Source: Escherichia coli (GTDB taxonomy: Bacteria > Pseudomonadota > Gammaproteobacteria > Enterobacterales > Enterobacteriaceae). From it: 64,000 nt of DNA. The notes below the pieces were generated by a model. The model did no database searches. It was not told the DNA's origin and was given only the letters and a program-made list of their open reading frames with translations. Position 1 is the first letter of the stretch, and every line of letters starts with the position of its first letter. The DNA is taken from assembly GCF_050920415.1 (NCBI RefSeq), contig NZ_CP169309.1, one strand, 5' to 3'. This document shows positions 29,112 through 29,327 of the stretch, piece after piece. A program made the translations under genes and the position numbers.

Positions 29112-29287
29112 ATGACCTCCCTTGATTCACTTACAGAACACTGGTTGTCTACTGACCATGCAGCAGAGGGTGCCAGTACAGCGTTACGCTCATATTCAGG
29201 TACGCTACCGCCCGGGTTCCCGGCATCCACCATCTCCCTCATGAAAGCGTAACTCCTTACTGACACTCATTTTTTACACGTACAAAA

Positions 29288-29316
29288 ACAACATCCTGCA
29301 CTAAGGCAGGATGTTG
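29288..29316 (-). terminator. Hairpin in the hcp-vgrG intergenic region (putative partial terminator or attenuator)
   Basis: caacatcctgc...gcaggatgttg stem followed on the minus strand by TTTTTGTACG. Confidence 0.45.
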
Positions 29317-29327
29317 TTGACTCAGAT

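Follow-up and report, generated by a model that had tools for sequence, protein, structure and literature searches.

The window analysed here, a 64-kb stretch of Escherichia coli DNA, contains a complete type VI secretion system (T6SS) cluster. The tssB, tssC, tssE, tssF, tssG, tagH, tssJ, tssK, dotU and tssH genes are encoded on the plus strand, divergently from hcp, which is followed on the minus strand by vgrG. The island adjoins yafV, ivy and fadE and is aspV/yafV-linked, a chromosomal site common to the T6SS of EHEC EDL933 (tRNA-Asp ... T6SS ... yafV). Between hcp and vgrG lies a hairpin, and the 1-kb stretch around it has 100% identity to two RefSeq chromosomes, whose annotation gives the flanking genes as Hcp-family and TssI/VgrG. 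The identical stretch in NZ_CP169399.1 carries the annotation 'Hcp family type VI secretion system effector' for hcp, and the annotation of the identical stretch runs from tssI to the IS21 genes istA/istB and then to a gp5-domain pseudogene fragment. The features of the junction, in the direction of transcription and each with the source of its assignment, are the following:

29328-29846, minus strand: hcp, T6SS tube protein, 172 aa (ORF list and translation)
29330-29328, minus strand: hcp stop codon TAA (sequence)
29327-29319, minus strand: spacer of 9 nt from the hcp stop to the hairpin, AUCUGAGUC (sequence)
29287-29318, minus strand: hairpin overall, perfect 13-bp stem with a 6-nt loop, 32 nt (sequence and fold)
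29318-29306, minus strand: 5′ arm, AACAACAUCCUGC (sequence)
29305-29300, minus strand: 6-nt loop, CUUAGU (sequence)
29299-29287, minus strand: 3′ arm, GCAGGAUGUUGUU (sequence)
29286-29279, minus strand: T-rich tail 3′ of the full stem, UUUGUACG (sequence)
29278-29267, minus strand: A-rich spacer (sequence)
29266-29171, minus strand: conserved block of about 96 nt (nhmmer profile and alignments)
29170-29122, minus strand: variable stretch (sequence)
29121-29116, minus strand: ribosome-binding site (Shine-Dalgarno) of vgrG, GGGAGG (sequence)
29111-29109, minus strand: vgrG start codon ATG (sequence; the start is conserved in an alignment of 14 regions)
27426-29111, minus strand: vgrG/tssI, a 561-codon frame whose C-terminus is cut by an IS21 insertion (translation, RefSeq annotation)

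The hcp-proximal vgrG of the window is interrupted by IS21 at about 25548-27512 (plus strand), which comprises istA (frameshifted in the reference) and istB, and the gp5-domain C-terminal part of vgrG persists as a separate fragment at 24753-25445 (minus strand). This copy of vgrG is probably non-functional, and because it is disrupted any stoichiometric role of the hairpin is moot for the window copy. Downstream of the broken gene, an effector module at 17988-24740 (minus strand) encodes a DUF4123 adaptor, three DUF3304 proteins and a Tle1-like phospholipase; next to it are a group II intron reverse transcriptase gene (ltrA) and then ISAs1 remnants. Relative to the closest complete genome, NZ_CP169399.1 (4118751-4129929), the window lacks about 11.2 kb around positions 28900-29128, a stretch that holds two further vgrG/PAAR/effector islands (Tae4 amidase, M23-type endopeptidase) and IS2. 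Since the junction falls in the repeated 5′ end of vgrG, the comparison suggests that the loss was a deletion by recombination between vgrG copies. The best sigma-70-like site of the region (30315-30343, minus strand, TTGGTA-17-TATAAT, 10/12) points towards hcp and lies about 470 nt upstream of the hcp ATG, within the divergent hcp-tssB region of about 650 bp.

The initial annotation of this stretch had noted an 11-bp inverted repeat at 29288-29316 on the strand that codes for hcp and vgrG. The repeat is present there, but its size and end have to be corrected, as the stem consists of 13 pairs and its 11-bp core spans 29289-29316. The T-rich tail reads as that annotation gave it when it is counted from the 11-bp stem (TTTTTGTACG), and it becomes UUUUUGUACG when the two terminal U's of the stem (29287-29288) are included. 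The U-tract, UUUUUGUA, directly follows the 11-bp G-C-anchored stem and is interrupted by a G; six of the 13 pairs are G-C, and the base of the stem is rich in A-U and G-U. Folding of the minus-strand RNA gave a stable hairpin with an MFE of -20.3 kcal/mol, compared with a mean of -9.9 (sd 2.5) for shuffled sequences (z -4.1), and none of 200 dinucleotide shuffles was as stable. When 339 nt of context were folded, the MFE and centroid structures both contained the same hairpin. A scan of the 64 kb yielded its pattern a single time, and none of 100 shuffles contained it.

A consensus terminator scan did not list this hairpin, because the T tail was counted after the maximal 13-bp stem, where only 4 of 8 bases are T. 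Our own scan, which allowed the stem to be trimmed, recovered it at -18.8 kcal/mol with the tail TTTTGTAC. That scan found about eight compact terminator-like hairpins in the 64 kb, and the one past hcp is the sole one inside the T6SS cluster. Others with T tails lie at 14002-14023 (plus strand), 58888-58919 (plus strand) and 59780-59807 (minus strand), and a symmetric, T-tailed hairpin found on both strands at 56017-56045 could act bidirectionally.

The element past hcp thus has the parts expected of an intrinsic terminator: a stable stem-loop (13 pairs, 6 of them G-C, with a 6-nt loop), a U-rich tract 3′ of the stem, which is borderline if counted from the full 13-bp stem, and a location past a coding region, that of hcp, on the strand that is transcribed. 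As in many strong terminators, the first U's pair with A residues that lie upstream. Like canonical E. coli Rho-independent terminators, the hcp hairpin combines a stable stem-loop with a U-rich tract just past a stop codon; it differs from them in its G-interrupted U-tract and in the A-U/G-U-rich base of its stem. A further difference is that canonical terminators end transcription units, whereas this one stands between two co-oriented, functionally linked genes.

We examined the conservation of the hairpin on two scales. A search with the Hcp protein, limited to one genome per species, yielded 529 relatives, from which the best 80 loci were kept. Nearly all of these best 80 of 529 hcp loci have a strong hairpin after the stop codon, although the sequences are quite different, and 73 of the 80 have, within 70 nt of the stop, a helix of 8 bp or more without interruption. 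The median z of the region past the stop was -3.3 over the 80 loci, with 61 below -2, while control regions 400 nt downstream had a median z of 0.09, with 2 of 74 below -2. The second set comprised 24 distinct Enterobacteriaceae homologs, the enterobacterial subset that aligns readily with the window hairpin, from Escherichia, Citrobacter, Yokenella, Buttiauxella, Atlantibacter, Lelliottia, Trabulsiella, Phytobacter, Enterobacter and other genera. Among homologs the hairpin starts 6-20 nt past the hcp stop, mostly 6-11 nt. Compensatory changes were found at 8 of the 13 stem pairs; 94.2% of the cells form standard pairs in register, compared with 33-62% in slid registers; and the observed covariation score was matched by none of 500 column shuffles. 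The loop drifts freely in its sequence and ranges from 4 to 8 nt. All 24 homologs have retained the T-run, with 5-7 T among the 8 bases counted from a conserved CTG, and the alignment consensus of the tail is ATGCTGTTTTTGTA.

An inverted repeat between two genes could also be a palindrome that functions as DNA, either as the operator of a dimeric regulator or as a recombination site, or it could be a chance repeat without a role in RNA. Perfect 13-bp arms could in principle bind a dimeric protein, and the site lies within a regulatory intergenic region. The pattern of change among the homologs argues against such a function, because what has been kept is complementarity and not the sequence of the half-sites, as the compensatory pairs and the variable loop length attest. 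In addition, G-U pairs outnumber A-C mismatches by 25 to 4 across the 24 homologs, an asymmetry that is meaningful only if it is the hcp-sense RNA that pairs, which excludes both an operator in DNA and an antisense RNA. The covariation pattern effectively refutes a DNA-level palindrome, and the shuffles together with the cross-genus conservation exclude a chance origin; we regard this whole class of explanations as extremely improbable. The comparative pattern instead shows that the post-hcp hairpin is ancient and that selection acts on it as a structured RNA. The claim that there is a repeat of consequence on the coding strand is thus borne out by the fold, by the uniqueness of the element and by covariation across genera.

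An element of this kind is already known, since experiments on its EHEC counterpart were published in 2026. Vazquez-Lopez et al. (Microbiol Spectr 2026, PMC13141884) studied the hcp3-vgrG3 intergenic region of EHEC O157:H7 EDL933, designated h3R, and predicted in its region I a terminator hairpin of 32 bases and 14 interactions that lies at +8 of the hcp3 3′ UTR. The EDL933 locus (L082, 24636-24875) and the window align over 246 nt with a mean column identity of 83%, and the two hairpins line up arm with arm; two of the pairs carry compensatory changes (A-U to G-C and U-A to G-C). Both lie right past the hcp stop in the same island, both are 32 nt long and both have an TTTTTGTA tail. They differ in the loop (4 nt in EDL933, CUUAGU in the window) and in the number of pairs (14 versus 13); the window also has 6 nt fewer past the T-run in the alignment, and its vgrG is the IS21-disrupted one. 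Judged by the homologous sequence at the same locus and by synteny, the window hairpin is the ortholog of EDL933 h3R region I. The window allele itself is rare, with matches of at least 99% in only 3 of 5426 complete E. coli genomes, whereas EDL933-like versions of the intergenic region (60-80%) are found in about 2200 of the 5426.

In the experiments reported for EHEC, no hcp3-vgrG3 RT-PCR product was detected in the wild type, and deletion of region I reduced hcp3 mRNA to 6% of the wild-type level and Hcp3 protein to 50% (plasmid) or 85% (chromosome) (PMC13141884). In a gfp-h3R-mCherry reporter, deletions halved the upstream GFP signal and doubled the downstream mCherry signal, and deletion of region I increased the junction transcript, which was described as 'slightly present' from a plasmid (PMC13141884). 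Induction of a swapped hcp3 promoter raised vgrG3 mRNA, though less than hcp3 mRNA (PMC13141884). Deletion of region I alone caused only a small rise in VgrG3; region II also had to be removed, and VgrG3 protein appeared only when both regions were deleted (PMC13141884). When the lac or araBAD promoter took the place of h3R, VgrG3 was still undetectable (PMC13141884). According to that study, region I is a terminator that stabilises hcp3 mRNA and lowers downstream expression, and hcp3 and vgrG3 form separate operons, with a vgrG3 promoter and transcription-factor sites predicted in region II (PMC13141884). The same report describes the T6SS of the type present in the window as H-NS-silenced in the laboratory (PMC13141884).

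These published functions are what the anatomy of the window hairpin would lead one to predict. The proposal in the initial annotation that the hairpin is a leaky terminator is supported in part. It agrees with the terminator anatomy, with the compensatory changes and with the reduced downstream expression caused by the EHEC ortholog, but it conflicts with the view of the EHEC authors that the two genes belong to separate operons. Its corollary, high hcp and low vgrG output as a stoichiometry device, fits in its logic and agrees with the weaker induction of vgrG3 mRNA, while VgrG3 rose only slightly upon deletion of region I alone. Stabilisation of hcp mRNA, which is the strongest effect measured in EHEC, was no part of the original proposal.

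The hairpin had also been called an attenuator, and in the regulated sense of that word the designation does not hold. A regulated attenuator has an alternative antiterminator structure and a sensing input ahead of the terminator. We saw no sensor, what lies upstream is the hcp coding region, and the 339-nt fold contained no pairing that competes with the hairpin in either the MFE or the centroid structure. A search of 28000-31500 against Rfam at E <=5 returned only two chance hits to miRNA families, both far under the gathering score. The conserved block lies downstream of the terminator and therefore cannot serve as a co-transcriptional antiterminator. For these reasons (no competing fold, no Rfam family and a block that is downstream of the terminator) a trp-type leader, a T-box and a riboswitch were all rejected.

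The large loss of hcp3 mRNA in the EHEC deletion, accompanied by loss of the upstream reporter signal, raises the possibility that the hairpin is purely a barrier to mRNA decay. According to this explanation, hcp and vgrG are co-transcribed without a stop, and the hairpin blocks 3′-5′ exonucleases after endonucleolytic cleavage downstream, which lets the hcp segment survive longer than the remainder of the message. A precedent is the T6SS4 of Yersinia pseudotuberculosis, where a stem-loop directly past hcp4 was tested and judged to be a non-terminating stabiliser; mutation of the stem lowered hcp4 mRNA and left downstream transcripts unchanged, and the proposed purpose was a very high level of Hcp relative to the downstream components (PLoS Pathog 2025, PMC12503267). 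That element resembles the one described here in that it is a hairpin directly past a T6SS hcp whose disruption lowers hcp mRNA, but its sequence is non-homologous, it belongs to another T6SS type and the gene downstream is tssE4 (PMC12503267). It is described as a GC-rich stem-loop, a description that makes no mention of a U-tract (PMC12503267). A decay barrier could likewise account for the 10 of our 80 loci that have a strong post-hcp hairpin without a T-run, which are found among high-GC relatives including several Halomonas-group loci.

In the Enterobacteriaceae, however, the T-run has been kept in every one of the 24 homologs while the loop and the upper stem have drifted, and since a hairpin that served stability only would not need a T-run, this argues for a terminator. 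The increase in the junction transcript and the doubling of the downstream reporter upon deletion of region I, as well as the failure to detect a co-transcript in wild-type EHEC (PMC13141884), also count against a barrier that lets all transcription through. We therefore consider pure decay protection improbable. Protection of the hcp mRNA in addition to termination may still apply. The hairpin has the structure of an mRNA 3′ stabiliser, and the corresponding loss of mRNA was seen only in the EHEC ortholog and with the non-homologous Yersinia hcp4 loop.

The malE-malF REP, puf and pap systems, cited in PMC12503267 as cases in which intercistronic hairpins or partial terminators set differential expression within operons, are comparable in that the upstream cistron is expressed in excess and a 3′ hairpin raises upstream mRNA relative to the distal genes. 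They act mainly through mRNA decay, whereas the hcp hairpin has the full anatomy of a terminator. REP is moreover a repeated element and the hcp hairpin is single-copy. A homologous intergenic region is present in 2745 of 5426 complete E. coli genomes, about half, as a single copy per genome (median 1, maximum 2), and this, with the single occurrence of the hairpin in the window, led us to reject identity with REP/BIME or ERIC elements.

Directly past the hcp terminator, an alignment of 14 orthologous intergenic regions revealed a block of about 96 nt (29171-29266, minus strand) that is more conserved than its surroundings. A profile of the block matches the window at 29266-29171 (nhmmer, E 5e-25) and matches 22 of the 84 sequences searched, which consisted of the window, the 80 hcp loci and three annotated E. 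coli stretches. Every match lies directly past the hcp hairpin, including three at loci where other genes stand ahead of vgrG (L028, L017 and L019). In the Citrobacter werkmanii locus L028, a 321-aa ORF and a 204-aa ORF at 3727-5307 (plus strand) separate the hcp terminator and block from vgrG; the 204-aa product appears membrane-like by eye, and the two may be an inserted effector-immunity pair. The block is conserved in at least 10 enterobacterial genera, always linked to the 3′ end of hcp, and RefSeq places no E. coli annotation within it.

The sequence of the block is a long palindrome with imperfections; it can fold into an extended, imperfect hairpin (-44.5 kcal/mol in the window), and most orthologs fold in a similar way. 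Its RNAalifold covariation term is -0.16; with an explicit structure, 83% of the cells are paired, but the observed covariation score was reached by 181 of 500 shuffles, and the covariation is therefore not significant. A small ORF in the block (a 74-codon GTG frame at 29042-29266, or an ATG frame beginning MVDAGNPGG) was rejected as unlikely. The frame is open for at least 19 codons in 11 of the 14 orthologs, but it has AAG as its start in one, is broken in Buttiauxella A111 and Atlantibacter, has variable ends, and shows neither a usable Shine-Dalgarno spacing nor three-base periodicity in its conservation. CsrA sites, suggested by GGA motifs in short hairpin loops, would be a weak speculation; two of the GGA motifs are lost in EDL933, C. 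youngae and others. A sigma-54 promoter was also rejected, since the TGGCAC motif is confined to the window sequence, is not conserved in the orthologs and is wrongly spaced. It is possible that the block is a leader or regulatory element for the downstream gene, and it probably lies within the 'region II' that is reported to be inhibitory for vgrG3 (PMC13141884).

The block bears on a further explanation, namely that the terminator is efficient and ends essentially all hcp transcripts, while vgrG and the effector genes are transcribed as an operon of their own from an intergenic promoter, for example within or beside the 96-nt block, that has its own activating signal. This would accord with the promoter and transcription-factor sites predicted in EHEC region II and with the orphan clusters of V. 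cholerae, in which vgrG is reported to be transcribed separately (Zhang et al. 2021, cited in PMC13141884). The V. cholerae hcp-vgrG auxiliary clusters are similar in being adjacent, co-oriented and transcriptionally uncoupled, and differ in genus, in their regulators (IHF, HapR) and in their sigma-54 hcp promoters (PMC13141884). A 2011 study of V. cholerae had predicted a single hcp-1-vgrG-1 operon by bioinformatics, with no mention of a hairpin (PMC3166118). An intergenic region of about 200 nt with a conserved block would have room for a promoter and an operator, and the block stays with hcp even where other genes precede vgrG.

On the other hand, a consensus promoter scan found no sigma-70-like site of at least 9/12 on the minus strand of 29112-29327, and inspection by eye did not find conserved -10/-35 or sigma-54 spacing in the block. 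The EHEC data that count against this explanation include the rise in vgrG3 mRNA upon induction from the swapped upstream promoter, the faint junction transcript from the plasmid, and the failure of lac and araBAD promoters in place of h3R to yield detectable VgrG3 (PMC13141884). Eight relatives (L011, L018, L021, L022, L024, L025, L031 and L032) have only 65-80 nt between hcp and vgrG, with the hairpin in between; in one of them, Enterobacter asburiae (L032), a run of eight T's past the hairpin ends 21 nt ahead of the vgrG ATG. Such spacing leaves no room for a separate intergenic promoter, and therefore vgrG in these relatives would have to be expressed by read-through or from a promoter inside hcp. 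On balance, an independent vgrG promoter behind a fully efficient terminator seems doubtful to us.

We propose with moderate confidence that the hairpin is both a Rho-independent terminator and the 3′-end protecting stem-loop of the hcp mRNA, and that termination is probably incomplete, with some read-through to vgrG. Polymerase coming from the hcp promoter would transcribe 29318-29279, and the 13-bp stem would form in the nascent RNA just before the U-rich tract. Transcription would end there in a large share of cases and give a short monocistronic hcp mRNA, which the 3′ hairpin would shield from 3′-5′ exonucleases. The terminated and shielded message would then allow Hcp, the most abundant part of the T6SS, to be made in excess. 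A minority of polymerases would continue through the 96-nt block, where further control would be exerted, and reach vgrG and the effector genes. The higher upstream expression, the lower downstream expression and the stabilisation of mRNA that this scheme assumes are carried over from the experiments on the EHEC ortholog; for the window strain we infer the actual RNA 3′ ends, the fraction of read-through and the dependence of vgrG on it.

Read-through to vgrG is probable on the combined grounds of the EHEC promoter induction, the faint plasmid junction transcript, the lack of a sigma-70-like intergenic site and the relatives with 65-80 nt between the genes. A speculative source of leakiness is the ribosome terminating at the hcp stop codon: only 9 nt from the stem, it could keep the weak A-U pairs at the base of the hairpin from forming. 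Several observations count against our preferred explanation: the miss in the consensus scan, the interrupted U-tract, the A-U/G-U-rich base of the stem, the smallness of the rise in VgrG3, the two-operon view of the EHEC authors and the Yersinia hcp4 stem-loop, which stabilises without terminating.

We also suggest, tentatively, that the terminator is one half of a gate with two parts. As its other half, the block could be a cis-regulatory RNA leader or a platform for protein binding, in either case of a kind not yet described, and it would decide whether transcripts that read through or are initiated locally express vgrG and the effector genes. If true, such a gate would explain why region II and the hairpin had to be deleted together before VgrG3 appeared. 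The less understood part of the hcp-vgrG intergenic region is the conserved block and not the hairpin.

Our analysis adds comparative covariation evidence and the adjoining conserved block to a hairpin of an ordinary kind whose ortholog had already been published. It extends a study of a single EHEC strain by compensatory changes across genera, by a U-tract that has been kept and by the presence of a post-hcp hairpin in 73 of 80 related hcp loci of gammaproteobacteria. The spike of a T6SS contains three VgrG, whereas its tube takes a far larger number of Hcp subunits, and it matters how a cluster sets that ratio and keeps its toxic effector modules silent. The hairpin would be one of the devices for doing so.
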